Assembly: GCA_024405635.1 (NCBI GenBank)
Contig: JAKSOL010000007.1
Location: 40,755 to 104,754 of the forward strand
DNA length: 64,000 nucleotides
From: Salinivirgaceae bacterium
GTDB taxonomy: Bacteria; Bacteroidota; Bacteroidia; Bacteroidales; SZUA-534
Direction: 5' to 3'
Shown: in pieces, positions 4,996-48,045 of the stretch
Position numbering within the stretch: the stretch's first letter is position 1
Layout: each line of letters starts with the position of its first letter
Notes under the pieces: model-generated
Database searches by the model: none
What the model was told of the DNA's origin: nothing
What the model saw: the letters and a program-made list of their open reading frames with translations, nothing else
Translations under genes and position numbers: made by a program

Positions 4996-6606
<1,611 letters not shown>

Positions 6607-6629
6607 CCTTATTTTAAGTTTATTAAAAC

Positions 6630-6665
6630 AAAAAATCCCCAAGTTTTGGCTTGGGGATTTTTTTG
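6630..6665. terminator. bidirectional rho-independent terminator between pyrG and the EamA gene
   Basis: Hairpin ATCCCCAAG/CTTGGGGAT flanked by an A-run and a T-run. Confidence 0.7.
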
Positions 6666-6687
6666 TATTGATAGTAAAAATGACTTG

Positions 6688-7614
6688 CTATTCGGTTTTT
6701 ATCAAATCGCTCTTGGCCTTGCTTTTGTTTACCATTATAACACCAACAACAACCAAAATGGCGGCTACCATTTTTTGCCAGTTGAGCGAGTCCATTCCAA
6801 GATAAATGCTCATTACAGCAGCAATTAGTGGTTGCAAATAAGTGTAAAGGCTTACAACGGTTGGCCGCAGACTTTTTTGTCCCACGGGAATAAGAAAATA
6901 GGCCACAAAGGTTGCCATAATAATCAAGTAGGATAGTTCAAGGTAGTAGTTTGTAGGAATGGTTGAGTAATTAACGCTTGCAAGGTCGGTTACACTGAAG
7001 GGCAACGACACTAAAAGCGAAAACAAAAACATCCACTTCATAAACGTAACTACACTGTATTTGGCAATTAGTGGGCGGAAAATGCCAAGGTACATGGCAA
7101 AAAATACGTTGTTGAAAATTAAAAGCACCACGCCCATCGGTTTGGTTTCCGATACACCATTTGAGCCTAGGCTTACGCTGTTGAGTATAAGCATCACCAC
7201 ACCAGCAAAACCAATAATCACGCCGCCTGCTTTTTTCCATGTAATTGGTTCTTTAAGAGCTATGGCGGCCACAATCATTGTAAAAATGGGCACAAGAGGC
7301 GAAATAATTGCAGCATCAAGTGATGTGGTTATGGTTATGCCAACCAAAAAAGTCATTTGGGTAAGAAACAAACCTAACATTGATGCTATGAATATTTTGC
7401 AAAAGTCGGCACGGTCAATTTTTTCTTTTGGCATAAAAACCGAAGCTAACCAAAGTAGCGCACTAGCGCCAAGTGCACGCAAGGTAAACAACCCTATGGG
7501 CGAAATTATGTGCGAGTTGGCAATACCTTTGCACACAATAATGTTGAATCCAAAAATGGCGTATGCCGTAAAGGCTGCAGCGTGGCCAATAAGTTTGTTG
7601 TTGTTTGCGTCCAT
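6688..7614 (-). CDS. EamA/DMT family transporter
   Basis: 308 aa with about 10 predicted TM helices and the two-fold EamA-like architecture. Confidence 0.75.
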   Translation of the reverse strand: MDANNNKLIGHAAAFTAYAIFGFNIIVCKGIANSHIISPIGLFTLRALGASALLWLASVFMPKEKIDRADFCKIFIASMLGLFLTQMTFLVGITITTSLDAAIISPLVPIFTMIVAAIALKEPITWKKAGGVIIGFAGVVMLILNSVSLGSNGVSETKPMGVVLLIFNNVFFAMYLGIFRPLIAKYSVVTFMKWMFLFSLLVSLPFSVTDLASVNYSTIPTNYYLELSYLIIMATFVAYFLIPVGQKSLRPTVVSLYTYLQPLIAAVMSIYLGMDSLNWQKMVAAILVVVGVIMVNKSKAKSDLIKTE

Positions 7615-7634
7615 TCTTTATGTTGTTGTTTGTG

Positions 7635-9737
7635 CTACGAAATGCGGCCCCAATCAAACTCATATCGCCAACGGCGGGTTAATTCGCTTAGCAGAATAGA
7701 GTTGTTGTTATTGGCAAGGGTAGGGTCGTTGTCTAGTACTTGCTCGGCAGCATTTCGGGCAATAATCAAAATTTGGTTGTCGGTGCTAAGGTTGGCAATT
7801 TTCAGGTTAATGTCTAGTCCGCTTTGTTGTGTTCCTTCAAGGTCGCCAGGTCCGCGCAGTTTAAGGTCGGCTTCGGCAATGGCAAAACCGTCGCTTGTTT
7901 GCACCATGGTTTGCAAGCGTTGGCGAGCATCGGTGGTAAGTTTATTGCCCGACATGAGTATGCAGTACGACTGGTCAGCTCCACGGCCTACACGTCCGCG
8001 TAATTGGTGCAGTTGGCTCAAACCAAATCGTTCAGCGCTTTCAATAACCATTACCGAGGCATTTGGCACGTTTACACCTACTTCAATCACTGTGGTTGCT
8101 ATCAGTATATCGGCCTGATGGTTTATGAAGTAGTTCATCGATATGTCTTTGTCGGCTGGTTTCATTTGTCCGTGTACCACGCTTATTGAGTATTGCGGTG
8201 GCGGAAAAGCGCGCAATATGCTTTCAACTCCATCTTCAAGGTACTTGTAGTCGCTCGACTCCGATTCCTTTATCATTGGATACACAATGTAAATCTGTCG
8301 GCCAAGTTTTATTTGGTCGCGCATAAATTGAAATACTTGCAGCCTTTTTGTGTCGAAGAAATGGTAGGTTTTAATTGGTTTTCGGCCTGGTGGCAGTTCG
8401 TCAATTACCGACACGTCGAGGTCGCCATACAGAGTCATTGCCAAGGTGCGAGGAATGGGTGTGGCGGTCATTATAAGCACGTGTGGTGGTGTGTTGTTTT
8501 TCTTCCACAATTTGGCGCGTTGTGCTACTCCAAAACGGTGTTGTTCGTCAATCACTACCATGCCAATGTTGTTAAACACCACGTTGTCTTCAATAAGTGC
8601 GTGAGTTCCAACCACAATTTTTAGTTGTCCTGAAGCTAAATCGTCAAGCAATTTTTTTCGCACCGATTGTTTGGTTGATCCTGTGAGTAATGCTACAGGC
8701 AGTCCCATTGGTTGCAGCAAATCGCAAAACGACTTGTAGTGCTGTGTGGCCAATATTTCGGTTGGTGCCATAATGCAAGCTTGAAAACCGTTGTCAATGG
8801 CCAACAATATGCTCATAAGTGCTACAAGTGTTTTTCCGCTACCAACATCGCCTTGCAGCAAACGGTTCATTTGGTAACCAGTGTTGGTGTCGTGTCTAAT
8901 CTCGTGTAGCACTCGTTTTTGTGCTCCAGTTAGTTCAAACGGAAGGTGCTTTGAGTAAAAGGTGTTAAAATATTCGCCTACAGTGGTAAACCTATGCCCG
9001 CCAAAGGCTTTGGCTCTATGTCCTTTTATTCGTAGCATTTTAAGTTGTATGTAAAACAACTCTTCAAATTTTAATCGAAAACGAGCCCTTTCAAGTTCTG
9101 CTTGGCTTTGTGGAATGTGTATGTTCATTAGCGCATCGCCAAGTTTCATAAGATTTAGTTGCTCAATAATGTAGGCGGGTAAAGTTTCGTGTATCGAGCC
9201 TTTTATTTGTTGGTGTAGAGCTATTTGAATGTTGTGAATGGTGCGCGATGTTACATTGCGCGTTTTCATTTTTTCGGTAGTGTTATATAGTGGCAATAGC
9301 GCTGCCGATAGGTTTTGTTTGTGCTTGTCCATTGTCTCCATTTCGGGGTGAACAATGTTCAAGTTGCGGTTAAATTCGCTAGGCTTACCAAACACCACAT
9401 ATTCCTCGTTCAGTTTTAGCGACGAGCGTATCCATTTAATTCCGCGAAACCATACCAACTGAATCAGTCCTGTTTCGTCGGCAAAATAGGCTATCATTCG
9501 CTGTTGACGGCCTTCGCCAATAACATCAACTTTGGTAATTCGGCCTTTAATCTGAACCCAACCAAGTTGCTCGTTTAATTGGTTAATGGGGTAGTATCGA
9601 GTGCGGTCAAGATGTCGGTACGGAAAGTAATACAACATGTCGCGAACTGTTTTTATGTTCAGTTCGGTTGCTAAAATGTTGGCTCGTTCGGTTCCAACAC
9701 CTTTTAGGTACGTTATGTTGTCGTCAAGGTTTAGCAA
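7635..9737 (-). CDS. recG: ATP-dependent DNA helicase RecG
   Basis: 700 aa. It has Walker A GDVGSGKT, DEQHRFG, and SF2 helicase motifs, with an N-terminal wedge-domain-length region. Confidence 0.9.
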   Translation of the reverse strand: MLNLDDNITYLKGVGTERANILATELNIKTVRDMLYYFPYRHLDRTRYYPINQLNEQLGWVQIKGRITKVDVIGEGRQQRMIAYFADETGLIQLVWFRGIKWIRSSLKLNEEYVVFGKPSEFNRNLNIVHPEMETMDKHKQNLSAALLPLYNTTEKMKTRNVTSRTIHNIQIALHQQIKGSIHETLPAYIIEQLNLMKLGDALMNIHIPQSQAELERARFRLKFEELFYIQLKMLRIKGHRAKAFGGHRFTTVGEYFNTFYSKHLPFELTGAQKRVLHEIRHDTNTGYQMNRLLQGDVGSGKTLVALMSILLAIDNGFQACIMAPTEILATQHYKSFCDLLQPMGLPVALLTGSTKQSVRKKLLDDLASGQLKIVVGTHALIEDNVVFNNIGMVVIDEQHRFGVAQRAKLWKKNNTPPHVLIMTATPIPRTLAMTLYGDLDVSVIDELPPGRKPIKTYHFFDTKRLQVFQFMRDQIKLGRQIYIVYPMIKESESSDYKYLEDGVESILRAFPPPQYSISVVHGQMKPADKDISMNYFINHQADILIATTVIEVGVNVPNASVMVIESAERFGLSQLHQLRGRVGRGADQSYCILMSGNKLTTDARQRLQTMVQTSDGFAIAEADLKLRGPGDLEGTQQSGLDINLKIANLSTDNQILIIARNAAEQVLDNDPTLANNNNSILLSELTRRWRYEFDWGRIS

Positions 9738-9752
9738 TGTGTTACCGTTTAA

Positions 9753-12449
9753 CTAAAAGTTGTCGTACCAGCTACGGCTCTTGTTGTATTTCAAGTCTTG
9801 CAAAACGGCCGATTTTACGTTAATGCTGAAACTATAGCTTTGGCGGGCTCCAAATGGAACCAATCGAACCGAAGCAACCCAGCAGTGCAAGTCGCGCGAT
9901 ATTGACATACTTGTATGTGTGAATTGTTTTGTGTCGAAATCGAAACCTGAATTCAAACCAATTTTCCATTTTGGAGTTAGGCTTAAGTCGCCGTTAAAAC
10001 TTAATGTTTGGCTAATTTTTTGCGACAAACCTTGGTTGGTGTATGTCAGGCTATAGTTTAACGACAAGCTCCAAGGCACATTAAAGTAGTCGTACTCGCG
10101 CAATTCGTCGCTCACGCCATCGCTGTGGTCTGCATCAATGTTTTTGGTTTCTTCGTCTTTGTTCTTTTCTGCTCGTTTTTTCGCTATGTCTTTCGAATTG
10201 AATTGATAACTGGTTGATAGCGAAGCTCGTGTTATGCGGAAAGGTTTGCCAGTAACGTCGTATTCAAATTTATCGATGCGCTTGCCCAAGTCGTCAAGTG
10301 CATAAAGGTCGCCTGTTGCATTAAAGTTTACGTTCAGTGTTTTAAACAATTTTGTGCGGCCTGTCATCGATATGTTGCTCCATTTGAATTGCTCGGCTAG
10401 CATATTGTAAGAGGTTGAAAAATTCAACGCATCAAAAATTACCACTTTGCGAGTTTGTGTTATTGTGTCTTTTAAGTCGCGCACTTTCATTTCAACTCGG
10501 TTGCCTAACGAGAACGAGAACGAACTTGTTTTTCCTTTGCCCGGTACTCCGTAAACAGCGTTCTTAAATATCGAATAACGCTTGCTAATGTCGTTTGCAT
10601 AAGCAGGGCAAGGGTCGCTGCGGTAGTATCCAAATTGATTGGTGCTAAAATCGGGTTTGTAACTATACGATATGCTTGGAGTCATTACGTGGCGCAATGC
10701 CAATATCGGTCCAATTTTGTATTGGTACATGCCATACAATGTGGTATTTACGCCTAACGATACGCCATACTCGTGCAACCATTTAAACTGATTGTGTTCT
10801 ACTTCTTTGTAATGGTAGTCGTATACTTTTTTGTTTGCGCTCGATCTTGCCTCGTTGAGTGTTGAATCGACAAATACTTTTTCGGTGTATTTCCAATACC
10901 ATCGGCCTGTGTAGTTCACACCAGGCGACACACTTAGGTATTTAAGCACCTTAAACGATTTGCTTATGGTTGGTTTGTGTTGTGCTCCGTATATAAACTT
11001 GTCTTTGGTTGATGGCGCAAACAAACTATCGATGTGTGTTTTTACCGAATTTTTGAACGATCCTGAGTACGATATGCCAATGTCTTCGTACCAACGTTGT
11101 TTGCCAACTGCATTTTTACGTTTAAATGGTTGAATGCGGCGCATCGATAGCGACAAATTAGGCAGTGTTAGGCTCAAACTTGAGTCGCGTGTGTTTTGTG
11201 TGTGCAACACGTTTATTGATGCATTAAACGGCGAGTTCCAAATACTATTCATTTGGTACGATATGCTCGACGATGTGGTGTTGGTTAAGTAATCGGACGA
11301 CGATGTTGAAACCTTTTTGTTGTACTCGCTGCTCGAAAAGTTTACGTTGGCGCTAAAGGTTGTGTTTGGTCGGAATTTTGGGTCTTGTGTGTGTGTCCAA
11401 GTTAGTTTGTACGATGTTCCTTCGCTGTAGTCGCTTAAGCCTTTTTCGCCTGTTACGGTTTTGGCGTATGTAAACGACATGTTGCCCGAGAATTTGTATC
11501 TCACTTTGTATCGGGTTGTTGAAGTTGCGTTCCACGAGCCTTTTGAGTAAACGCTACCACGAACAGTAAAATCAAAGTAATCGTTAATGGCCAAATAATA
11601 ACCACCGTCTGATAGGTAGAAACCACGGTTGCGCTCTTCGCCTACACGTGGCATTATAAAGCCCGATGTTCGTTTTTTGGTAATGGGGAAGTAACCAAAC
11701 GGCAATGCCAATGGAAGCGGTATGTCGGCCATAACCATATATGCGGGTCCCGACACTATGGCTTTGTCGGGTATAACTTTTCCTTTTGTTAGCATCAGGT
11801 AAAAGTGTGGGTCTTCCAACTCGCAAGTAGTGTATTTTCCGTGCAGAATGTTAATTGAGTTGTCGGCTTCTTTTTTTGTGAGTTGGCTGTGCAAATAGCC
11901 ATCTTGTTGTTCGCTATATAGGTTTTCAATGTAGCCGCGCTGTGTGTTTACGTTGTAGGTCAGCGTTTTAGCTTTCATTTCTTCATTTCCTTGTTTAAAT
12001 ACAGGAGCGCCAGTAACGTTGCCAGTGCTATCGGCAACTCCTTCGGCATACACAATGCCTTGGTCCATATCGGCCTCAATGTATGCGGCGGTAAGGTTAA
12101 TGTCGTCAAACTGAATTTCGGCATCGCCATAAAGGTAAACCTTGCCACCATCGAGCGAAAAAATGGTAGAGTCTTTGGCTGAGGTTGAAATGGTTGATTT
12201 GAATAGCGGCTTTTTATTTTTTTGAGCAGAATCGTTGGCTGCAATAGCAGATTTGCTCGCATCATTAGCTGGTTTTGATTGAAACTCGCTGCGAGTTTCT
12301 GTCGTTGCTATGTGCGATGCAGTGTCGGCTTTTGCAGTTGTAGTGTCTGTTGCCGGTTTATTATTGTTATTTTCAGCAGTTTGTCCCGATGCACTTGTTG
12401 CGCACATCAGTAAAACCAACACCGCTGAGAATATTCCTTTTGCTTTCAA
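9753..12449 (-). CDS. large outer-membrane protein, LptD-like (putative LPS assembly protein)
   Basis: 898 aa with a signal peptide, an OstA-like N-terminal region (GKVYLYGDAEIQFDDINLTA) and a long beta-rich C-terminus ending in an aromatic residue. Confidence 0.5.
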   Translation of the reverse strand: MKAKGIFSAVLVLLMCATSASGQTAENNNNKPATDTTTAKADTASHIATTETRSEFQSKPANDASKSAIAANDSAQKNKKPLFKSTISTSAKDSTIFSLDGGKVYLYGDAEIQFDDINLTAAYIEADMDQGIVYAEGVADSTGNVTGAPVFKQGNEEMKAKTLTYNVNTQRGYIENLYSEQQDGYLHSQLTKKEADNSINILHGKYTTCELEDPHFYLMLTKGKVIPDKAIVSGPAYMVMADIPLPLALPFGYFPITKKRTSGFIMPRVGEERNRGFYLSDGGYYLAINDYFDFTVRGSVYSKGSWNATSTTRYKVRYKFSGNMSFTYAKTVTGEKGLSDYSEGTSYKLTWTHTQDPKFRPNTTFSANVNFSSSEYNKKVSTSSSDYLTNTTSSSISYQMNSIWNSPFNASINVLHTQNTRDSSLSLTLPNLSLSMRRIQPFKRKNAVGKQRWYEDIGISYSGSFKNSVKTHIDSLFAPSTKDKFIYGAQHKPTISKSFKVLKYLSVSPGVNYTGRWYWKYTEKVFVDSTLNEARSSANKKVYDYHYKEVEHNQFKWLHEYGVSLGVNTTLYGMYQYKIGPILALRHVMTPSISYSYKPDFSTNQFGYYRSDPCPAYANDISKRYSIFKNAVYGVPGKGKTSSFSFSLGNRVEMKVRDLKDTITQTRKVVIFDALNFSTSYNMLAEQFKWSNISMTGRTKLFKTLNVNFNATGDLYALDDLGKRIDKFEYDVTGKPFRITRASLSTSYQFNSKDIAKKRAEKNKDEETKNIDADHSDGVSDELREYDYFNVPWSLSLNYSLTYTNQGLSQKISQTLSFNGDLSLTPKWKIGLNSGFDFDTKQFTHTSMSISRDLHCWVASVRLVPFGARQSYSFSINVKSAVLQDLKYNKSRSWYDNF

Positions 12450-13793: not shown

Positions 13794-15026
13794 GTGAAAA
13801 GTCGCATTTTAACAATAACTGGCCTACTTGCGTTTGTTGCAATTGTAGGAGCCTACGTAGGCATTAATTACTTGAAAGGTTTAAGTGTGTTTAGTCATGC
13901 AAACACTTATGTTGTATCGTACTCGCGCATCGACGGTTTGCAAAAATCGGCTCATGTGGTGGTCAATGGTTTTCAAATTGGTAACGTAAGCAACGTTTAT
14001 CTCGATCCCGACCATTCGGGCAACATTACTGTTGAACTTACTGTAAATCAACAATACACCATTCCTAAAGCGTCAACTGCAAAAATCTACAGTAGCGACC
14101 TTATGGGCACCAAAGCTATTGAGATTATTTATAGCACCGACACTGCAATGATGCAAAACGGCGACACCTTACGTGCCGACTTTGAAGGCAGCCTTACCGA
14201 AATGGTTAGCGTGCAAATGCTTCCACTTAAAAACAAAGCCGAAGATTTGATTAAAGAAATGCAAGAGGTAATGGCTATCATTTCGTACATTTTTAATTCC
14301 GAAACTCGACAAAACATTACCGAAAGCTTTAGTCACATTAGAGCTACAATTGCTCATCTCGAAATGTCGTCAATTGCTCTCGATACCATCGTTTCGGGTC
14401 AGCAACGTCGCATCAATCGCATTATGTCAAACGTTGAGCAACTTGCGCAAACTTTGGGCAACCAATCGGACAATATCAACCAATCGTTGCAAAACATTGC
14501 AGGCATCACTTCCGATTTAAACAACGCCGATTTGCAAGGTTTGTTATTGTCAATCGACACTGTTGCTCAGTCGCTTAAAACGGTGCTTGCTACTGTTGAG
14601 CAAGGGCAGGGCACTGTTGGTAAACTTATGGCCAACGATACACTTTACTACAACATTCAGAACCTTTGTGCTAGCTTAAACAATCTTACCGACGACCTTT
14701 ATGCTAATCCGGGCAAATACATCAATGTGTCGATGATTGGTAAAAGCAAAAGCACCGTTGTCGCTCCCGACCAAACGCCTATTGAGGGCAACTCTTATTA
14801 TCGAATTTGCTTAATGTCATCGCGCACCGAATTGCAAACTACCGACAAGGTTTTTGCTGGTTACAATGTGGTTCGTTATGCTACAAACGGCACTTATCAC
14901 TATTTGTATGGCAACTACAAAAAGCAAAACAAAGCTTCCGACGATTTGGCTGAAATAAAAGCTAAGTTCCCTCAAGCTTGCCTTGTTGAAATGCGAGGTG
15001 GCTTTATTGTCGAATTCTTGAAGTAG
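13794..15026 (+). CDS. MlaD/MCE-family protein with C-terminal SPOR-like domain
   Basis: 410 aa with an N-terminal TM helix and an MCE-like region (VVSYSRIDGLQKSAHVVVNGFQIGNV). The C-terminus resembles the SPOR region of the neighbouring amidase. The start codon is GTG. Confidence 0.6.
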   Translation: MKSRILTITGLLAFVAIVGAYVGINYLKGLSVFSHANTYVVSYSRIDGLQKSAHVVVNGFQIGNVSNVYLDPDHSGNITVELTVNQQYTIPKASTAKIYSSDLMGTKAIEIIYSTDTAMMQNGDTLRADFEGSLTEMVSVQMLPLKNKAEDLIKEMQEVMAIISYIFNSETRQNITESFSHIRATIAHLEMSSIALDTIVSGQQRRINRIMSNVEQLAQTLGNQSDNINQSLQNIAGITSDLNNADLQGLLLSIDTVAQSLKTVLATVEQGQGTVGKLMANDTLYYNIQNLCASLNNLTDDLYANPGKYINVSMIGKSKSTVVAPDQTPIEGNSYYRICLMSSRTELQTTDKVFAGYNVVRYATNGTYHYLYGNYKKQNKASDDLAEIKAKFPQACLVEMRGGFIVEFLK

Positions 15027-39042: not shown

Positions 39043-39077
39043 GTATTATATAATGCTCAATCTAAGACAAGTAAAAC
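39043..39077. repeat. repeat copy 1 (most degenerate, 31/35)
   Basis: GTATTATATAATGCTCAATCTAAGACAAGTAAAAC. Confidence 0.8.
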
Positions 39078-39253
39078 CATATCTACTCTTATCAACGGAA
39101 ATGGACTAAAATGATGTGGAATGTCTACTTTTGTAAAACTAAAACGCAGAAAAACAACGCCGATGTCTACTTCGGTAAATTATTAATTCAATAAAAAATT
39201 TTCTGTGTCTACTTTTTTGAGCTGGTACAAATTTTTTGGTCCAATGTTTTCAT

Positions 39254-39367
39254 TACCGTCATTTTGATATCAATTTTCGAAAAAAGTTACTGTCATTTTG
39301 AGTAGATTTTCCAATATTTTTACCGTCATTTTGAAACTAAATCATAATATTTGTACCGTCATTTTGA
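39254..39367 (+). repeat. four iteron-like copies of TAC(C/T)GTCATTTTGA at 33-34 bp spacing
   Basis: Copies start at 39254, 39288, 39321 and 39354. The last ends 19 bp before the ATG of the DUF4143 ATPase gene. Confidence 0.7.
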
Positions 39368-39385
39368 GCTCAATACTTATTTATC

Positions 39386-40732
39386 ATGGCCGAAATATAT
39401 CAAAGAGAGGCATTGCAAAGCCTCAGGGAATGGAAGGAAAAGGCTGAACGCAAACCACTTATATTAAGAGGTCCGCGTCAGGTTGGGAAAACTACACTCG
39501 TGGATATTTTCTCAAAGGATTTTGAATCGTACGTTTACCTAAACCTTGAAATCGAGGAAAACGCAAAACTATTCGATACGAGCAAAAACATAAACGAGCT
39601 AATAACCTCGATATTTTTCATTGGCGGGCAAAAGATCAACAAGACAAGCAGCCTACTTTTCATCGACGAGATACAGAACTCGGCACAGGCTGTTATGATG
39701 CTGAGATATTTCTACGAGCAGGCTCCATGGCTTTATGTAATATCAGCAGGCTCACTATTGGAAAACCTTGAAAAAAGGAATATCTCATTCCCTGTGGGCA
39801 GAGTGGAATATATGGCTTTGCGTCCATTCTCGTTCAAGGAATATGCGTGGGCAAATCTAGGCGAGGATGTCTACAACGCCATCAACTCCGTATCCATACC
39901 AGAGGCTTATCACAGCAAGCTGATAAAGGAATTCAACACATACACATTGATAGGCGGCATGCCAGAAGTGGTATCCAACTTCATAAAATACAAAGATATT
40001 CTGAAACTGAACGAGATATACGACACCCTGCTGACCGCGTATCGTGATGACATAGAGAAATACGCTCCAAGAGAGAGCATAACCAAGGCAATGCGTTACA
40101 TAATGGAACACGGTTTCCCATACGCGTCGCAGGAAATAGTATTGGGAGGCTTTGCAGGATCGGCTTACAAGTCAAGGGAAATCGGAGAGGCATTCTCGCT
40201 GCTATCAAAATCGATGCTAACAGAACTTGTGTATCCATCCACGTCAACCGAGATACCGGCTCCTCCAGATATGAAGCGCAGACCCAAACTAATGTGGCTC
40301 GATACAGGAATAGTAAACTACGCCTCTGGCCTTAGGAAAGAGATACTTGGCGCCAATGATATTCTCGACGTTTACAAAGGTAAGATTGCGGAACACATTG
40401 TAGGCCAGGAAATAATATCGACCGACAGCAGATGCTCTTTCCGAAGAAGCTACTGGGTAAGAAACAAACAAGGCTCTGACGCAGAAATGGATTTCACCTT
40501 ACAGAAAGACAACAAGATGATCCCAATAGAAGTAAAAGCAGGAACCAACGCACACTTAAAATCGCTTCACATCTATATGGAAGAATCAGATCAGAATGTA
40601 GCCATCAGAATTTGGTCGAACCCGATGCAAATAGATGACATAAAAACTCCGAAAGGCAAAACTTTCAAACTGATTAACCTGCCTTTCTACTATGTGAGCA
40701 AGATAAACGAGATTTTGGAAAAGGAGATATAA
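39386..40732 (+). CDS. AAA+ ATPase with DUF4143-type C-terminal domain
   Basis: 448 aa with Walker A GPRQVGKTT and Walker B LLFIDEIQ. Its length and architecture are typical of COG1373-like ATPases. It lies between the two degenerate repeats. Confidence 0.8.
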   Translation: MAEIYQREALQSLREWKEKAERKPLILRGPRQVGKTTLVDIFSKDFESYVYLNLEIEENAKLFDTSKNINELITSIFFIGGQKINKTSSLLFIDEIQNSAQAVMMLRYFYEQAPWLYVISAGSLLENLEKRNISFPVGRVEYMALRPFSFKEYAWANLGEDVYNAINSVSIPEAYHSKLIKEFNTYTLIGGMPEVVSNFIKYKDILKLNEIYDTLLTAYRDDIEKYAPRESITKAMRYIMEHGFPYASQEIVLGGFAGSAYKSREIGEAFSLLSKSMLTELVYPSTSTEIPAPPDMKRRPKLMWLDTGIVNYASGLRKEILGANDILDVYKGKIAEHIVGQEIISTDSRCSFRRSYWVRNKQGSDAEMDFTLQKDNKMIPIEVKAGTNAHLKSLHIYMEESDQNVAIRIWSNPMQIDDIKTPKGKTFKLINLPFYYVSKINEILEKEI

Positions 40733-40951
40733 GAAAAAAATCGGAGTTTTAGCGGAATCTATCTAAAAAGGGCACATTCCGCTAAAACTCCGAAAGGCAA
40801 ATTTTTAATTATTTATCTGATATTGTGAAAATTAGGCTATGTTCTCAGCAAAATGAGGTAGGGCGTTTTTAGGGATTTTAGGGGAAGTTCGAAAAGGTGA
40901 ATAACCTGCCTTTCTGGTATACGAGCAAGATTTATGTATCGTGATACATAA

Positions 40952-40986
40952 GTTTTACATAATGCTCAATCTAAGACAAGTAAAAC
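40952..40986. repeat. repeat copy 2 (33/35, shares the AATCTAAG variant with copy 1)
   Basis: GTTTTACATAATGCTCAATCTAAGACAAGTAAAAC. Confidence 0.95.
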
Positions 40987-41220
40987 ATAAGCCATACCCA
41001 AATCGCCTTCGTCGATTATTATATTTTTCAATTGTTCGCCTGTAATACGACGTGTTTGCAAAGTTTCCCAACCAAACGGCAGTGTGCCGTCGTTGTTGGC
41101 TTGAATGTAGTTCACAGCCTTAACATTAAGATCAGTTCTTGTTTCTGCTTCGATACAGAAGTAAACATTTTCGTCGCCTTTTATACGAAAAAAATGTCGT
41201 TGAATGTCTATTAGTTTCAT
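40966..41220 (-). CDS. hypothetical protein; last codons and stop are supplied by repeat copy 2
   Basis: 84-aa ORF. The C-terminal VLLVLD* is encoded by the reverse complement of the repeat, so the native 3' end is probably missing. Confidence 0.35.
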   Translation of the reverse strand: MKLIDIQRHFFRIKGDENVYFCIEAETRTDLNVKAVNYIQANNDGTLPFGWETLQTRRITGEQLKNIIIDEGDLGMAYVLLVLD

Positions 41221-41440
41221 AATTCTTGTTTTTATGTATTGTTTAGTTAGTTATTTGTTTATTTTTGCATCGAGTTCAGCGTCTTTATCGCTAAACAATG
41301 AATTGGCTTCCAACAGCGAGAGCAATTGTAGCTCTCCCATCGCGGATAGCCAATTTTTAATTTTACGACTATCGTAATACCACACATTGTTAGTAGCAAT
41401 AGATTGCTCTATTTTAGTACATATTTTATTGTCATTTTGA

Positions 41441-41475
41441 GTTTTACATAATGCTCAAACTCAGACAAGTAAAAC
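41441..41475. repeat. repeat copy 3 (consensus)
   Basis: Exact 35-mer. Confidence 0.95.
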
Positions 41476-41531
41476 TAATACAGAACAAGTACAACGAACT
41501 TGTTAACCGCATGCAGGCGGTGGTCTTTTAG
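41476..41531 (+). pseudogene. 3'-terminal fragment (last ~17 codons) of a HicB-like gene
   Basis: Encodes IQNKYNELVNRMQAVVF*, near-identical to the C-terminus of 43913..44308. It starts exactly at the repeat boundary. Confidence 0.8.
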
Positions 41532-41610
41532 GACTTAATCAACATTAAGGCGGTGCTGCATTCACCGCTTTTTTTTTGCTTTTAAAAAAAATTTTGTAAT
41601 TTTGTAGTGC

Positions 41611-41697
41611 TTTATAAGCATCCCTGGACTCGCTCCGAGATTGGGTTTGTGTCGAAAGGCTCATACCACCAAAGCCTAACAGTGTTAGGCTTTTTTT
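41611..41697 (+). ncRNA. candidate structured small RNA, copy A
   Basis: Upstream lie TTTG (41575-41578), an 18-nt spacer and TAATTTTG (41597-41604), which fit the Bacteroidetes -33/-7 promoter. The body contains a GAAA-tetraloop hairpin. It ends in the terminator AAAGCCTAAC-AGT-GTTAGGCTTTTTTT (41671-41697). A diverged homologous copy lies at 43741-43832 on the minus strand. Confidence 0.45.
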
Positions 41698-41927
41698 GTT
41701 AATGACGAGTTTGTTTTGATGACATTATAGCCGTCGTCAAAGTAATAATATACCTTTATTTTATCTATATGCCACAAATTGTACAATGCGTTGATAGCCT
41801 TATCTGTATCAATACCTCTTTCTAAGCATTGCAACACGATTTCAGCCTTTTGATGATTTATGGCATAACGTGCTTTTTTTTCAATATTACCAGTTCCTTT
41901 GGTTTGTTTCAAATCTGCTGGAATGCC
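41685..41927 (-). pseudogene. 3' half of a gene homologous to 43235..43734, truncated at the repeat
   Basis: The reading frame GIPADLKQTKGTGNIEKKARYA... runs right up to repeat copy 4. It aligns with ...DGIPADLKQTKGTGNIEKYARYA... of the longer copy. Confidence 0.8.
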
Positions 41928-41962
41928 GTTTTACATAATGCTCAAACTCAGACAAGTAAAAC
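41928..41962. repeat. repeat copy 4 (consensus)
   Basis: Exact 35-mer. Confidence 0.95.
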
Positions 41963-42374
41963 TTACAATACCCTTTACAGTGATGTTTTTTATGGTTGCA
42001 CCGCTCGAATACCCGAATAATCCGATACTGCGTGTTTCAGCCGAACTGTCAGCAACATTCATATTCGAAATGGTGTGGTTGTTGCCGTCAAAAACACCTT
42101 TAAACGGATTCCTTGCCTCGCCAATGCTAAACCACGGTTGATTGTTCAGGTCGATGTCCGCAATAAGTTTATAGTGCAAAGTATCAAATCCCTGTGTTCC
42201 GGCACTAACAACATACGACATAAACGCCAGTTCGTTAGCGGTTCCAATAATATATGGCGACTCTTTGCTGCCATCACCTTCTGTGAATTCTTCCATGGCG
42301 CCTTCCCATGCGTCTGCCGCATGAGTGTTAATCACCGCCAACACCATGACGATGCTAATGAATGTAATCTTTCT
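41963..42374 (-). pseudogene. internal fragment of a secreted GLUG-motif-type surface protein gene, truncated at both repeat boundaries
   Basis: The minus-strand frame begins mid-signal-peptide (RKITFISIVMVLAVINTHAADA) directly after a stop contributed by the repeat. It contains PFKGVFDGNNHTISNMNV and IGLFGYSSGATIKNITVKG and ends after about 137 codons inside repeat copy 4. Confidence 0.7.
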
Positions 42375-42409
42375 GTTTTACATAATGCTCAAACTCAGAC
42401 AAGTAAAAC
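42375..42409. repeat. repeat copy 5 (consensus)
   Basis: Exact 35-mer. Confidence 0.95.
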
Positions 42410-42604
42410 TTTTAGATGTTTCAAATCGGAGGGCGAGAATTTGCCCACCTCCGCCTTGTAAGTAACACGTGTTATTTTGCCGTTCTTTACGTAAAAAGAA
42501 ACTTTTACTACATTGCCGTTCTTTACAGCGTGAACGTGAATGGGTTTGTGTTCGCCAGAATAGAACAAAATTTTTATTCCAAGATATTCGTATATTACAG
42601 GCAT
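42395..42604 (-). CDS. DUF4160 family protein, 3' end replaced by repeat sequence
   Basis: MPVIYEYLGIKILFYSGEHKPIHVHA is typical of DUF4160. The terminal VLLV* is encoded by repeat copy 5. Confidence 0.75.
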   Translation of the reverse strand: MPVIYEYLGIKILFYSGEHKPIHVHAVKNGNVVKVSFYVKNGKITRVTYKAEVGKFSPSDLKHLKVLLV

Positions 42605-42676
42605 AAATTAAAACTCCTTATAATGATTATTTGTAATTCCCACGAAAGGCTTACTACTACTAAACGTTGCACAACA

Positions 42677-42943
42677 ATGTGCATTAACAAGATTATTGCC
42701 GATTGTAAAGCATTTAAGATTGGCAAAACTGGCGACCCTCAAAGCAGGGCGGCCAATTATGGCGATTTTGACAAAATGTATCTTTTGGTTCAAAGCAAAA
42801 ATTCGCTTCTGATTGATAGGCTTGAAGGCTACTATACCCAAAAGTATTACGGCCATAAAAAAAATATGAATATAAACAGAGGTTCTGCGGCTGTTATGGC
42901 TTCTTCTCATAGGACTTACTATTTATATATTGTTGTCAAATAG
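42677..42943 (+). CDS. hypothetical protein (88 aa)
   Basis: The start is taken at ATG 42677 (MCINKIIADCKAFKIGKTGDPQSR...). The upstream part of track ORF 42416..42943 is antisense to the DUF4160 gene. No family was recognised with confidence. Confidence 0.35.
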   Translation: MCINKIIADCKAFKIGKTGDPQSRAANYGDFDKMYLLVQSKNSLLIDRLEGYYTQKYYGHKKNMNINRGSAAVMASSHRTYYLYIVVK

Positions 42944-43192
42944 GCCATTATACATACTTAACGGATTTATGTCTGCTCCGTTGTCCCAAGTAACAATGCC
43001 GTCAACTACGCCAACTTTGGCAAATAATTCTTTGTCGATTAAGGCCTTAAAAACTGGGAAATAGCCTTTTTGTATGTTGTTTTTTAGATAGCATATTTTT
43101 TCTGTGCCATCATAAAATTGCACTTGTAAGGCATATTCGTCTATGTTATATACTTTAACCGACTTCACATCAAAAAAGGCTTTTTCCTTCAT
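42923..43192 (-). CDS. DUF2442 family protein
   Basis: 89 aa. The segment ...YALQVQFYDGTEKICYL...VDGIVTWDNGADINPLSMY is typical of DUF2442. The start codon lies only 7 nt from repeat copy 6. Confidence 0.8.
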   Translation of the reverse strand: MKEKAFFDVKSVKVYNIDEYALQVQFYDGTEKICYLKNNIQKGYFPVFKALIDKELFAKVGVVDGIVTWDNGADINPLSMYNGLFDNNI

Positions 43193-43199
43193 TGTTTTG

Positions 43200-43234
43200 G
43201 TTTTACATAATGCTCAAACTCAGACAAGTAAAAC
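43200..43234. repeat. repeat copy 6 (consensus)
   Basis: Exact 35-mer. Confidence 0.95.
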
Positions 43235-43734
43235 ACGATATTAGCAATATTAGTGAGTTGGCTGAAAATCGTGCAGAGTTCATGGCGTATGCGACAAATC
43301 CTGATTATACATCTACGTTCGACACTGGCAGCGGTGGTTTCTTGGCTAAACATAACTCACGAATACCTAACGACTCAACGTCAAAGAACGATATAGAGAA
43401 GTATGAGAAAGAAATAAGAATGTGCGATGTATTCGTAAAGGCTGGGCACAAGATTGTTTACAAAGAAGATGTCCAAGGGGAGTATGATGTGTTATTTGAC
43501 GGAATTCCAGCAGATTTGAAACAAACCAAAGGAACTGGTAATATCGAGAAATACGCAAGGTACGCCGTGAAGAGTCAGAAAGCAAAAATGGTGCTTTTTT
43601 GTTTGGAAAAGGACATAAATAGAAACAAAGCGGAGGAGGCACTAAGAGCGTTGTATATAGTAGATAAAATCAAAGTGTTGTATTATTATGAGGACAATAC
43701 GAATGTTGTTTTGTCTAATAAATCACTTCTATAA
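43235..43734 (+). CDS. hypothetical protein with possible PD-(D/E)xK-like motif (polymorphic-toxin / polyvalent-protein style)
   Basis: The frame is open from repeat copy 6, and the first internal ATG is at 43282 (MAYATNPDY...). The motif EYDVLFDGIPADLKQTKG suggests a D...D-x-K nuclease. The family assignment is tentative. Confidence 0.4.
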
Positions 43735-43740
43735 AATAGA

Positions 43741-43832
43741 AAAGCCCAACAATAACATTGTCAGGCTTTTAGTGGTACGAGTCTTTCGACACGTACCCTA
43801 TCTCGGGGCTAACCCAGGGACTGCCATTTAAG
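43741..43832 (-). ncRNA. candidate structured small RNA, copy B
   Basis: The reverse strand carries TTTG (43865-43868), an 18-nt spacer and TAATTTTG (43839-43846), the same promoter geometry as copy A. It has a 10-bp stem with a GAAA loop and a terminator hairpin (43741-43770) shared with the convergent gene. Confidence 0.45.
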
Positions 43833-43912
43833 ACACTACAAAATTACAAAATTTTTTATAAAAGCAAAAGAAAAAGCGGTGAATGCAGCACCGCCTTAAT
43901 GTTGATTAAGTC

Positions 43913-44308
43913 CTAAAAGACCACCGCCTGCATGCGGTTTACAAGTTCGTTGTACTTGTTCTGTATTATTGCTTTCTGCTTGTCCGATACTGGTACAAGT
44001 TTACGTTTGTATTTGCGCATCATTGCTGCGTTTAGACCTATTTCCTTGGCGAATGCTGTGGCGTTGATAAATGGAAATTGCTCAAAGAACCCAGATATGT
44101 CGTACACGTATTCTACTGCGATATTGTCACTATACCAATCTGGGTATTTCCCTGTTTGTTCCATGTGGTATTTGGCTTGCTCAACCATAACTTCCTCGAA
44201 GCATGTTTTAGCCTCTTGTTCTGTCATGCCACTGCCGTACACGCCTTGCGCATCGTTGGTGTAAATAGCAAAACCTCCGTCTGCGCCCCTCTCAATAACT
44301 GCTTTCAT
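43913..44308 (-). CDS. HicB-like antitoxin family protein (no hicA partner present)
   Basis: 131 aa. The N-terminus MKAVIERGADGGFAIYTNDAQGVYGSGMTEQEAKTCFEE is typical of the HicB/UPF0150 fold, and the C-terminal region is HTH-like. Confidence 0.6.
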   Translation of the reverse strand: MKAVIERGADGGFAIYTNDAQGVYGSGMTEQEAKTCFEEVMVEQAKYHMEQTGKYPDWYSDNIAVEYVYDISGFFEQFPFINATAFAKEIGLNAAMMRKYKRKLVPVSDKQKAIIQNKYNELVNRMQAVVF

Positions 44309-44393
44309 GTTCGTTTAGTTTTATCATTGTTCTTTAAAAAAAAAGTTGAACTGCCCCCCACTAAGGGGAGCAGCGTTCTACTTTAGTCCTGCG

Positions 44394-44428
44394 GTTTTAC
44401 ATAATGCTCAAACTCAGACAAGTAAAAC
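44394..44428. repeat. repeat copy 7 (consensus)
   Basis: Exact 35-mer. Confidence 0.95.
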
Positions 44429-45293
44429 GGCTAACGCTTTTTCAAAGGCAATTACCGAGCGCGAAGTCCGCAAAACCGACAAGTATGCTGCCGAGATTAA
44501 CGCCATTAAAGGCAAGTTGCTCGACTTTATCAACAAAGGCGCTGAAATTAAAGATTCGCACTTTGACAAATACAACGATATTGCTAACAAACAAGTGTTG
44601 CACCCATTTGTAAAAATTGTGCGTGCTTACATTAAGATTAACGGCAAAGAAAACGTTAAAAAGCAAGCCAACACCATTTGCACCAACATTGCAAATCTTT
44701 GCAAAGTATTGCCAGCCGATTTTGAATTTATGGCACAACTTAAAGCAATTGAAAAAAGCTTAAACAACTACATTGAGGGCAAAACAGCAACGCCTAAAAT
44801 GTTGCAAACCGAATTAAGCGGTTTAGGTCGCATTGCCGATAACGACGAAGATGCAAGCACTGCATATTTAGTTACTCTATCAAGAAAAGAAGTGTACGAA
44901 GATGGTTACAGAGATAGTGAAACATTGCTAAAATCTAACGACTACAATGCCGCTATTGCATTTTTTAATGACAAGAAAAAGCAATTGCAAAATATGGCAG
45001 AAGATGATGTTTGCGATTATGATTTAACTATGTGGGTAGGCGACTATGAGGATATTGTAGAAGAAGAATTTGCAGATTTTATAGGAGAACCAACCGATGG
45101 TTATGCGGTTTTAATTAAAGACAGCCATGGTTACTTAATAGAAAATGGCGATGGAAAAACCGAAAGGGATTTTGTGCTCGAAGATTGTAAGGTAAAATTA
45201 GTTAAGAAAGACGAATTAACAGACGAAATACAAATTAGTTTTGGATTTCCAAAACGATGGGTAAAATTAGGTTTAATACCTTCAAGATTATAA
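44429..45293 (+). pseudogene. 5'-truncated ORF of unknown function (mobile-element-like)
   Basis: The frame is open from repeat copy 7 for 100 codons before the first ATG. Track ORF 44346..45293 reads through the repeat (VLHNAQTQTSKT). It shares a YI-x-x-x-TATP motif with the N-terminal part of 45929..46789. Confidence 0.55.
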
Positions 45294-45309
45294 GATATAA
45301 CTAACAACA

Positions 45310-45340
45310 AAAAAGCCGCGCTTAAAGGCGTGGCTTTTTT
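45310..45340 (+). terminator. rho-independent terminator
   Basis: AAAAAGCCGCGC-TTAAA-GGCGTGGCTTTTTT. Confidence 0.7.
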
Positions 45341-45426
45341 ACTTTGACAAGGCAAAGTACCTTGATGGCGCAGGGGCGTTAATCAATATTTCAGCCTAAC
45401 GACAACGTCCGAAACGTATTCCCTGA

Positions 45427-45948
45427 TTGTCCGATGCAAGTATAAGGAAAAAATATATACACAAACAAGATATGCGAGAAAAAATAATAGAATATATCAA
45501 AAAGGCGTGGAACGGCGAAAAATGCAGCAGATTGCTGGATATAACCAGTGCAATTGACATACAAGCACTGGAAGTTGCAAATAGTATAATTGATAAATTA
45601 AACGAAATACAAGATAGAGAAAAATACGACCACATTAAAAAAGTTAAAATATATGCAGTCGATTTTGATCACACAAAAGAAAGACATTTTGGTGCAAATG
45701 AAACAAGGACAGACCAAATACCTTTAACATTTGATGATATACCTTTGTTAGTCGATACTTTATTGTCGCCGCAATTGGTAAGATTAGGAACATTACGCCA
45801 AGATACAGGAGCAGGAATACACTTTATTAGCCAGTTGGATAATGGTAAAATGATTTGCGTACTAATAAAAGTTAAGCCGCAAAAAGAAACTTATAAAAAT
45901 AGAACAATATATAAAAAGAAATTAAAAGATGGAAGCAAGAATAGTTGA
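45427..45948 (+). CDS. PBECR-like (Barnase/EndoU/ColicinE5-RelE-like) nuclease domain protein
   Basis: The motif DFDHTKERHFGANETRTDQIPLTFDDIPLLVDTLLSP resembles the H-x3-RH ... pit-x-eDi pattern of polyvalent-protein nuclease domains. The likely start is ATG 45472. Confidence 0.45.
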   Translation: MSDASIRKKYIHKQDMREKIIEYIKKAWNGEKCSRLLDITSAIDIQALEVANSIIDKLNEIQDREKYDHIKKVKIYAVDFDHTKERHFGANETRTDQIPLTFDDIPLLVDTLLSPQLVRLGTLRQDTGAGIHFISQLDNGKMICVLIKVKPQKETYKNRTIYKKKLKDGSKNS

Positions 45949-46789
45949 TTTTTATATGGTAGAAAACACCAATAAGGACAAACGCCTACGCTTAATGAAA
46001 ATGAAAGCGCTTGCACTGGCTGAACCGCTTGACGGTTTAGCCACAACCAAGTGTGCTAACAATCAACCTGCCGATATTGTTAATCGATATTTGGATTTAC
46101 TCGATAAGCCAACACGCGCCGCCGCAATGGGCGTTTTGTCGTCGGTTGAGCGCTTTATTGAGCAAGCCGATAATAATTACCCTTATATGGCTGAATTTGC
46201 GGCTATGGCTGTAAGTTTGAGCGATTATATTAACGAAGAAACGGCAACACCACAAATTGCAGCCATCGACCTTAATAACATTCATAAAATATCAGGCGTT
46301 AATGTTGATAATAGCGAATTAAAAGGCATTGTAAGTAGTAAAACGCTGCTTGCTCATCAGTTTGAGCCGCTGAACTTTGGTGGTAAGTGGAAACTGTTAT
46401 TTGGTCGCCCAACCGCGCCTTTTAAGGTAATGGTACACGGAGCGCCCGGAAATGGCAAATCAACTTTTGCTATACAATTCGCTAAATACCTTGCCAGCAG
46501 CCACAAGTTGCGTGTATTGTATATTGCTAATGAAGAGAGTTTTACATACACCTTTCAGGAGAAACTTATGCGCCTGAACGCAATAGACGACAACCTGAAA
46601 ATAGCCGATTCGCTACCTGATAACTTTGACGATTATGATGTAGCGTTTTTCGATTCAGTAAACACAATGAAACTCGATATTGACGATTTACGACGAATAT
46701 TCAAACAAAACGACAAAACTTCGTTTGTGTTGATTTTTCAAAACAACAAGAAAGGTCAATTTAGGGGTTCGCTTGAGTGTTTTACATAA
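45929..46789 (+). CDS. RecA-like/AAA ATPase (phage or plasmid type), 3' end cut by repeat
   Basis: Walker A is HGAPGNGKST and Walker B-like is YDVAFFDS. The ORF ends ...GSLECFT* with the last codons and the stop inside repeat copy 8. Confidence 0.55.
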   Translation: MEARIVDFYMVENTNKDKRLRLMKMKALALAEPLDGLATTKCANNQPADIVNRYLDLLDKPTRAAAMGVLSSVERFIEQADNNYPYMAEFAAMAVSLSDYINEETATPQIAAIDLNNIHKISGVNVDNSELKGIVSSKTLLAHQFEPLNFGGKWKLLFGRPTAPFKVMVHGAPGNGKSTFAIQFAKYLASSHKLRVLYIANEESFTYTFQEKLMRLNAIDDNLKIADSLPDNFDDYDVAFFDSVNTMKLDIDDLRRIFKQNDKTSFVLIFQNNKKGQFRGSLECFT

Positions 46790-46813
46790 TGCTCAAACTC
46801 AGACAAGTAAAAC
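46779..46813. repeat. repeat copy 8 (consensus, cas2-proximal)
   Basis: Exact 35-mer, 50 bp from the cas2 stop codon. Confidence 0.95.
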
Positions 46814-46863
46814 AGACTATTGGCTAATTTATTGAATAAGAGTATACTATCATTGGTTTGCTG

Positions 46864-47187: not shown

Positions 47188-48045
47188 TTAAAACAATGAA
47201 GGGTAATATATTACACGTCGCTCACCTAAGTAAATCTGCGATAGCGAATAAGTTGTTTGTGACACATCGTCGGGTTTTATTGACTCGTAGAATAGCTCCA
47301 AAATGGCTTTTTTGAAGTTGTGGTCAATGCATCTTTGGCCGATGGTGTATAGTTCAAGCACTTTTTCGTCAACAAATGGTCGATATGGTTCCATAACATC
47401 GTCGCTCAACGGAAAGGAGTTGTATCGGTTTTTATGAAAAACACCAATCATTGGCAATAAACCTGAATTCATTAGCGCACGCGATACTACCGACCGCAAA
47501 ATGGCATATCCGTAGTTTAGCATATCGTTGGGACAATTGCCGTAACGGTCGCGTATAAAATCTTTGCCTAGCAAAAGTTTCCAATATGTTGCGGCTGCCA
47601 AAGCCTCGCGATTTGTTGTGTCGCCACTTTTAACATTCTTATGGTACTTGCTCAACACATCTTCTCCCTTGCCCAATTTTTGTAGCAATAGCGACTGGTT
47701 GTGTATCTTATGTTCTATTATCTGTTTCCAGATTTGTTTTCTAACGGGTTCTGTTGTCGCTAACTGCGCGTTAAAGGTCATTGTTTGCCGTACGTTTGAC
47801 TCTAAGTCTAAAGTCATGCTTACGGGCATGTGGCGCTCGTCGCAAAAAACTATGCTTATGTTGTTTTGAGACAACTTGTTAAGCAGTGGCACAGTGATGC
47901 GTACCGAATGGTTATCGACTAAAATACCCGACACGTCCTCTAACGAACGCATGATTGGGTCTTTATCTTCTTGACAAATTAAAAGCTGCCCATCTTTCAA
48001 CGATAGATCGGCTTTGTTTTCAAATACAAGTGTTTGTTTTGGCAT
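47188..48045 (-). CDS. cas1: CRISPR-associated endonuclease Cas1 (type II subtype)
   Basis: 285 aa, collinear with type II Cas1: IVFCDERHMP, NREALAAATYW, LNYGYAILRS, GVFHKNRYNSFPLSDDVMEPYRPFVD. The catalytic E, H and D/E positions are retained. Confidence 0.9.
   Translation of the reverse strand: MPKQTLVFENKADLSLKDGQLLICQEDKDPIMRSLEDVSGILVDNHSVRITVPLLNKLSQNNISIVFCDERHMPVSMTLDLESNVRQTMTFNAQLATTEPVRKQIWKQIIEHKIHNQSLLLQKLGKGEDVLSKYHKNVKSGDTTNREALAAATYWKLLLGKDFIRDRYGNCPNDMLNYGYAILRSVVSRALMNSGLLPMIGVFHKNRYNSFPLSDDVMEPYRPFVDEKVLELYTIGQRCIDHNFKKAILELFYESIKPDDVSQTTYSLSQIYLGERRVIYYPSLF

Follow-up and report, generated by a model that had tools for sequence, protein, structure and literature searches.

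The 64,000-nucleotide stretch analysed here (the window), part of contig JAKSOL010000007.1 of a Salinivirgaceae bacterium (assembly GCA_024405635.1), contains a locus that is probably a CRISPR (clusters of regularly interspaced short palindromic repeats) adaptation module recording long DNA fragments. It comprises cas1, cas2, a 50-nt leader and an array, and has no effector. An earlier note on this DNA had likened the segments between the repeats to ordinary spacers at 20-80 times the scale. The likeness goes beyond analogy, as a type II Cas1 and a Cas2, which that note did not mention, are encoded 50 nt past the last repeat and appear to serve an array with CRISPR-like polarity.

The array is built on a 35-nt direct repeat, GTTTTACATAATGCTCAAACTCAGACAAGTAAAAC, which occurs in eight copies, all on the + strand, and separates seven segments, S1 to S7 (Table 1). 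The copy at 39043 differs from this sequence by four mismatches and the copy at 40952 by two; the six copies towards 46813 are identical. The region 40952-46813 singled out in the earlier note does hold a real array, but, by starting at 40952, it leaves out S1 and the oldest repeat. Genes in the array point in both directions, and the GC content of the spacers lies inside the host range. The locus lies between housekeeping genes, with purU at one end and yhhQ-queC-queF at the opposite end. Elsewhere in the 2.66-Mb host genome, a 99.8% complete draft in 36 contigs, the repeat has one other copy, on contig C8 (L007). This copy, with one mismatch, forms an orphan unit (646-800) together with a copy of the leader and the last ~65 nt of cas2; the unit adjoins GNAT acetyltransferase genes, and the contig begins 645 nt before its repeat. 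Searches of 40 relatives and of JGI metagenome contigs turned up no copy of the 35-nt repeat.

Table 1. Features of the array and the adjoining cas genes, in coordinates of the window
Feature	Coordinates	Strand	Remarks
Repeat R1	39043..39077	+	Oldest, leader-distal, degenerate, 4 mismatches
Spacer S1, 1874 bp	39078..40951	.	Complete AAA_14/DUF4143 ATPase gene 39386-40732 (+); no gene cut at either junction
Repeat R2	40952..40986	+	Older variant (...CAATCTAAGAC...); same as repeats of sister strain L083
Spacer S2, 454 bp	40987..41440	.	Open reading frame (ORF) 40966..41220 (-) cut at its 3' end; second ORF fragment
Repeat R3	41441..41475	+	First copy of the newer variant
Spacer S3, 452 bp	41476..41927	.	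3' ends of HicB-like and nuclease-like genes; both junctions within genes
Repeat R4	41928..41962	+	
Spacer S4, 412 bp	41963..42374	-	Exact fragment of a surface-protein gene on contig C14
Repeat R5	42375..42409	+	
Spacer S5, 790 bp	42410..43199	.	DUF4160 gene (-, 3' end repeat-derived), 106-aa ORF 42623-42943 (+), complete DUF2442 gene (-)
Repeat R6	43200..43234	+	
Spacer S6, 1159 bp	43235..44393	.	5'-truncated ORF 43237-43734 (+), terminators, complete HicB-like gene 43913-44308 (-)
Repeat R7	44394..44428	+	
Spacer S7, 2350 bp	44429..46778	+	Leader-nearest; junction-open ORF to 45293, ORF 45472-45948, AAA_24 ATPase gene 45929-46789
Repeat R8, leader-proximal	46779..46813	+	
Leader, 50 nt between cas2 and array	46814..46863	-	Conserved in the C8 orphan unit and in L053
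cas2, 106 aa	46864..47184	-	Homologous to Bacteroidetes type II-C Cas2; conserved N-terminal Asp lost
cas1, 285 aa, type II	47188..48045	-	E147, H204, D215/D216/E219 conserved; clade-specific 8-aa deletion near the C-terminus

The Cas1 protein scores 284.5 bits on the type II model TIGR03639 (cut-off 120) and matches PF01867 at 1e-30, and its best match in the PDB is 5XVN. Cas2 gives a weak but full-length match to TIGR01573 (E 0.004); in a tblastn comparison with the Cas2 encoded behind canonical type II-C cas1 genes in two other loci (L012 and L016), it reaches E values of 1e-15 to 1e-17. Judged by their sequences, Cas1 and Cas2 are descendants of type II-C CRISPR proteins. Measured against a 94%-identical relative (L053), the ratio of nonsynonymous to synonymous substitution rates (dN/dS) is 0.18 for cas1 and 0.08 for cas2, and both genes are under purifying selection. 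Searching the 99.8%-complete genome, we found no match to Cas9 (TIGR01865) and, in a crude scan, no ordinary CRISPR array. For an anti-repeat, only partial matches with at least 11 mismatches were seen in the window, no search aimed at a trans-activating CRISPR RNA having been made. A scan against Rfam returned nothing real, a scan for sigma-70-type promoters gave no excess, and no consistent Bacteroidetes -7 motif was seen by eye in the repeats of different arrays.

We then compared the ends of the segments with the genes that they carry. The earlier note had held that almost every junction interrupts an ORF. Ten of the 14 repeat-segment junctions indeed cut genes, four of these cuts being proven by the sequence of a parent or a homologue, but at the other four (both ends of S1 and the right ends of S5 and S6) the genes are uncut, and the long segments carry whole genes. 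Complete genes are present in S1, S5 and S6 and in none of S2, S3 and S4; the right end of S5 sits 7 nt upstream of the DUF2442 ATG.

The two ends of S4 are documented within the same genome. This segment is identical at 412 of 412 positions to C14:45931-46342, corresponding to codons 2-138 of a 757-aa gene for a surface protein of the type IX secretion system (T9SS), with Flg_new_2 repeats and a Por_Secre_tail domain; the ATG of the parent gene immediately abuts the fragment. The right edge of S7 cuts into the ATPase, which breaks off at ...GSLE and lacks its last 33 codons, the reading frame ending inside the last repeat. A 94%-identical, 516-aa homologue (P0271, MuF_C + AAA_24) runs 33 residues past the cut, more than 100 other homologues extend ~32 residues beyond it, and the DNA similarity of S7 to the parent-like contig L081 stops exactly at 46778, the final base of the segment. 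At its left end, the frame is open for ~100 codons from the junction without any ATG. The ORF 40966..41220, which takes its tail from the repeat, is cut at the left end of S2 after ...GMAY, and in L083 a copy with 95.8% identity extends at least 79 codons further; at its right end, S2 resembles (~75%) an interior stretch of the MuF_C/AAA_24 gene in L081.

The remaining cuts were examined through more distant homologues. Over its whole length, S3 matches an internal part of S6 in inverted orientation at 76% identity, so that both of its ends lie inside genes held more fully by S6, and the reading frames 41685..41927 and 41476..41531 are the 3' ends of genes. The first ORF of S6 aligns to positions 270-391 of 459 of phrog_23416, and a search for a longer homologue of it returned nothing. 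The DUF4160 gene of S5 matches Pfam positions 1-47 of 65 and is therefore probably truncated. The statements of the earlier note that S4 ends about 137 codons into a larger surface protein and that the DUF4160 frame takes its 3' end from the repeat were borne out, and alignment to parents or homologues confirmed truncation at both ends of S4, at the right end of S7 and at the left end of S2.

The segments also overlap with one another. Both in the pair S3/S6 and in the pair formed by S2 and the second spacer of L083, the two members have different end points and opposite orientations, and on sequence comparison they are independent, overlapping captures of related elements. The view that the segments are arbitrary pieces of foreign DNA stood as regards arbitrary; they are not only foreign, as S4 derives from an element resident in the host genome. 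Its parent block on C14 (L072, 6636-12202) encodes DUF6291, a MobC/NikA-like protein, a MobA/VirD2 relaxase, a 142-aa ORF that is HNH-like by eye, and the T9SS gene, an arrangement like that of a mobilisable element. On contig C33 of the same genome (64197-64408), two sets of short remnants adjoin each other, with 85-93% identity to parts of S2 and of S7, close to a stretch resembling a tRNA gene by eye; they look like what remains of a similar element once integrated there. The L081 contig shares with the window the intergenic region 45298-45457 (98.8%) and the 3' part of the ATPase gene. Where the window carries the second ORF of S7 (orf2) and a different N-terminus, L081 has a MuF_C N-terminal region, and these elements are therefore mosaic. 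DNA searches with S2-S7 gave no match in phage or plasmid collections. In tblastn searches against phages, the ATPase had weak partial matches only and the first ORF of S7 (orf1) none; three spacer proteins scanned against IMG/VR had no relatives there, S7 orf1 and orf2 had no counterpart among the neighbours of P0122, and the array spacers of G173 and G423 had no second copy in their own genomes.

The same build recurs in other Bacteroidales. The nearest relatives of the Cas1 form a large set of 284-287 aa proteins, 52-68% identical, mostly from gut and rumen Bacteroidales metagenomes. In a FastTree phylogeny, all ~285-aa Cas1 proteins found beside long-spacer arrays fall into one clade, apart from most of the ~295-aa canonical Cas1. 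Taking every locus of this clade whose contig continued past the first repeat, the window included, we obtained 11 arrays with 49 spacers of 176-3483 bp (median 557 bp, none short) and repeats of 33-36 nt. Besides the window, these are G173 (two arrays, the second on a separate contig, L058), L045, L047, L053, L055, L075, L083, L084 and L086. Repeat sequences differ among the 11 arrays, most having the form GTTTT...AAAAC and all ending in AAAC, and the chromosomal location of the module differs between lineages. Cas9 was found beside cas1 at none of these loci; it is absent from the whole genomes of G173, G423 and G424, and in G422 it is encoded on a different contig. In G258, a canonical relative with 48% identity, a Cas9-sized ORF of 1558 aa is followed by cas1, cas2 and 36-nt repeats with 30-bp spacers. 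In a census of one genome per genus, Cas9 lay within 10 kb of a type II Cas1 in 219 of 225 distant relatives, compared with 57 of 72 in the closest band. Full-text searches and a review of the literature yielded no description of long-spacer Cas1-Cas2 arrays, which is not proof that none exists.

This recurrence also bears on the assembly itself. The genome is a draft, and S4 has an exact duplicate elsewhere in it, as might be the case had unrelated contigs been joined at a short repeat. However, the same junctions are found in independent public assemblies (contigs from runs X3 and X4, and L083), the ten further arrays come from other assemblies, and chimeric joining would not leave every piece flanked at either end by an exact 35-nt repeat. 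An artefact of this kind is hardly conceivable.

To describe the segment ends more generally, we compared the edges of the 49 spacers from the 11 arrays with shuffled sequence (27 spacers) and with random pieces of this genome. A frame was open for at least 50 codons at 60 of 98 spacer edges (61%), compared with 24% in shuffled sequence and 86 +/- 4% in random genome pieces. Gene-cutting is therefore far above the chance level of shuffled sequence. Being lower than in random genome pieces, it also implies that the source DNA is unlike the chromosome, or that the end points are not fully random; the excess of gene boundaries could come from mobile-element sources with small genes or from an end-point bias. 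Eight of the 49 spacers are open in one frame from end to end, where 0.6 would be expected from shuffled sequence and 23 from random genome pieces.

The sparing of genes relative to random chromosomal pieces could alternatively mean that Cas1-Cas2, like an integron integrase, gathers beneficial genes (toxin-antitoxin, defence, ATPases) for expression from the array, with the cutting of others as collateral. Whole genes do occur in long spacers, such as the S1 ATPase, the DUF2442 and the HicB-like genes and, in L083, a RelE-like gene with small partners, and in several spacers the leader-side junction is 0-17 nt away from an ATG. Yet the clustering of gene starts inside this junction (7 of 36 against 3.9 +/- 1.8 expected) is not significant (P ~0.08), the eight fully open spacers are internal pieces of genes, and S2, S3 and S4 are without a complete gene. 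The mixed gene orientation, the varying spacer lengths and the lack of attC-like structure also speak against such a platform, which we consider unlikely. The segments clearly look like arbitrary captured pieces of DNA and not like cassettes of the integron type, as the earlier note had it.

With integrons, the locus shares gene-sized units between short recombination-type repeats beside a presumed integrase gene. It differs in having no IntI tyrosine recombinase, identical 35-mers instead of variable attC hairpins, and units that are mostly gene fragments and not complete promoterless ORFs. An integron-like array, an array of another site-specific recombinase, or a repeat of the miniature inverted-repeat transposable element (MITE) or repetitive extragenic palindromic (REP) type scattered in a graveyard of mobile elements would nevertheless account for direct repeats with 7-nt inverted termini between gene-sized, mobile-element-rich segments. 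Matches to the tyrosine recombinase family PF00589 were found on contigs C5, C36, C23 and C21 and nowhere on C34, the 128-kb contig that bears the locus. The repeats are identical and in a single orientation, with no inverted copy near cas1, and occur only at the locus and in one leader-linked copy. Moreover, the parent of S4 does not have the neighbouring segments contiguous with it, and complete promoterless cassettes are exceptional. Taken together, these observations make an array of this kind highly improbable.

The order of the repeats and the comparison of strains both have a bearing on how the array grew. Repeat decay lies at the leader-distal end, R3-R8 share a derived 2-nt state, and the relatives L053 and L083 have the two-base variant seen in R2; the repeats of L086 show the same pattern of decay and variants. 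A repeat variant would be expected to spread towards the leader if each insertion copied the leader-proximal repeat. Among arrays associated with the Cas1 P0059, four samples have the order leader-R-657-R-726-R-374 (spacers in bp), and a fifth, L075, has the same leader and an extra 557-bp spacer before the same three (99.5-100% identical). Within this species, a contig from run X4 joins S2 straight to the last repeat, the leader and cas2, so that this strain is without S3-S7, and in run X3 we found S5 between repeats in another context. Finally, across 10 kb covering the cas genes and flank, L083 and the window share 99.2% identity, but the array of L083 is different: its first spacer, of 1370 bp, is absent from the window, and its second is an inverted, longer capture of the S2 region. 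From these comparisons we infer polarised acquisition at the leader end with duplication of the repeat, and the system appears to be active.

A dead relic would look different in several of these respects. If a type II-C locus had lost Cas9, its array having been inflated later by unrelated insertions or rearrangements and its Cas1-Cas2 being inactive, the lack of an effector and of any remaining short spacers would be explained, and a related cas2 in L044 does have in-frame stops. The purifying selection on cas1 and cas2, the recurrence of the architecture in 11 arrays with different repeats, and the exact repeats bounding every segment argue against this possibility, as do the gain at the leader end between near-identical strains (L075), the different array of L083 despite its flank identity, and the propagation of repeat variants from the leader end. 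A relic is therefore very unlikely.

For the adaptation module that we favour, we propose the following mechanism. The Cas1-Cas2 integrase, which we infer to perform the insertions, would insert double-stranded DNA fragments of ~0.2-3.5 kb at the leader-proximal repeat. Each insertion would duplicate the 35-bp repeat as in ordinary spacer acquisition, minus the length ruler that fixes ~30 bp. The fragments would come from resident and incoming mobile elements and would be cut irrespective of gene boundaries, so that genes are sliced at the repeats and whole genes are found only in long fragments. One complex would hold both ends of a looped fragment, and such looping would fit the minimum spacer of ~176 bp, which is close to the persistence length of DNA.

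Several observations weigh against this proposal. No effector was found, which leaves the selective value of the system unexplained, and the support for the long-spacer Cas1 clade is moderate (0.80). Intrinsic terminators lie inside the spacers on both strands, making a single long transcript of the array unlikely; the RNA contigs of run X10 cover the S1 ATPase and cas2/cas1 and not S2-S7, at a depth uninformative on array transcription. Spacer edges, as described above, cut open frames less often than random genome pieces do. Some of the differences between strains could be mimicked if recombination between repeats removed spacers. Finally, the flanking motif that the earlier note had suggested looking for at the truncation points was absent from the three known parental ends (both ends of S4 and the right end of S7), which show no sign of a protospacer-adjacent motif.

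Among known systems, type II-C CRISPR-Cas is closest in build, sharing the type II Cas1, a homologous Cas2, the order cas1-cas2-leader-array, repeats of 33-36 nt with a degenerate terminal copy, gain at the leader end and duplication of a repeat per insertion. In contrast to it, the present locus and its genome have no Cas9 and no short spacers, and the spacers measure 412-2350 bp here (176-3483 bp across arrays) instead of a uniform ~30 bp. The clade Cas1 proteins carry the 8-aa deletion near the C-terminus, and the N-terminal Asp is lost in most of the clade Cas2 proteins. Casposons likewise combine a Cas1-family integrase with kilobase-sized inserts and a short target duplication. However, they are self-mobile, have terminal inverted repeats and bring along both a cas1 and a family B polymerase, whereas the Cas1 described here is stationary, of derived type II ancestry, and works with Cas2 on unrelated cargo without conserved ends; all repeats at the locus are direct, and the neighbours of cas1 are housekeeping genes. 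As an analogy only, animal clusters of Piwi-interacting RNA (piRNA) also gather mobile-element fragments in both orientations and so keep a record of earlier invaders; there is no homology between the two.

CRISPR adaptation is thought to be tied to a molecular ruler of ~30 bp and to an effector that uses the spacers. The lineage described here appears to insert fragments 6-100 times longer, without an effector, which bears on how the ruler works and on the transition from casposon-like integration to spacer acquisition. A broader and more tentative interpretation, which we hold to be possible but less than even in probability, is that this Bacteroidales Cas1-Cas2 clade is a Cas9-independent recorder of kilobase DNA whose fragments serve defence or regulation, or gene capture. 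Its use might then lie in an effector-free control of mobile elements based on homology or long RNA, as a counterpart of piRNA clusters, or in gene capture driven by Cas1. If so, it would constitute a new functional class of CRISPR derivative and not a by-product of Cas9 loss. Since standard CRISPR finders limit spacer length, such arrays have probably been missed systematically in gut and rumen Bacteroidales. They represent an unread record of the mobile elements met by these uncultured bacteria, and an integrase that writes kilobases at a defined site is of interest for DNA recording and insertion.

Further observations concern individual spacers and related loci. Upstream of the S1 ATPase gene, at 39246-39367, a 33-bp unit is repeated four times in tandem (...ACCGTCATTTTGA); the end of S2 (41420-41440) carries a similar motif. 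Another metagenome-assembled genome (L082, 1823-4151) contains an 84.5%-identical ATPase gene, also with upstream tandem repeats; a directly duplicated 300-bp fragment of a DUF4143 gene lies on either side of it. The unit comprising the ATPase gene may be mobile in its own right. The nearest Cas1 outside the clade, in L041 (G026:C63, 41-713 and 3058-4343), has 294 aa and is without the 8-aa deletion. It is located 2.3 kb from a normal array with 47-nt repeats and 30-nt spacers, on a contig that ends 83 nt past cas2 in ...AATAAAAC, which could be the start of an array of its own; the locus may represent an intermediate form. The array of L086 itself contains a copy of the repeat and leader at 98% identity (6484-6609 compared with 9849-9974), and in it two successive spacers (6517-8517) are both 983 bp long and may be a duplicated unit. 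Finally, a 2254-bp spacer of L055 (G422, Alloprevotella) contains, at ~13900-14100, an element of ~90 nt that recurs with 91-98% identity on at least five other contigs of G422 and looks MITE-like.

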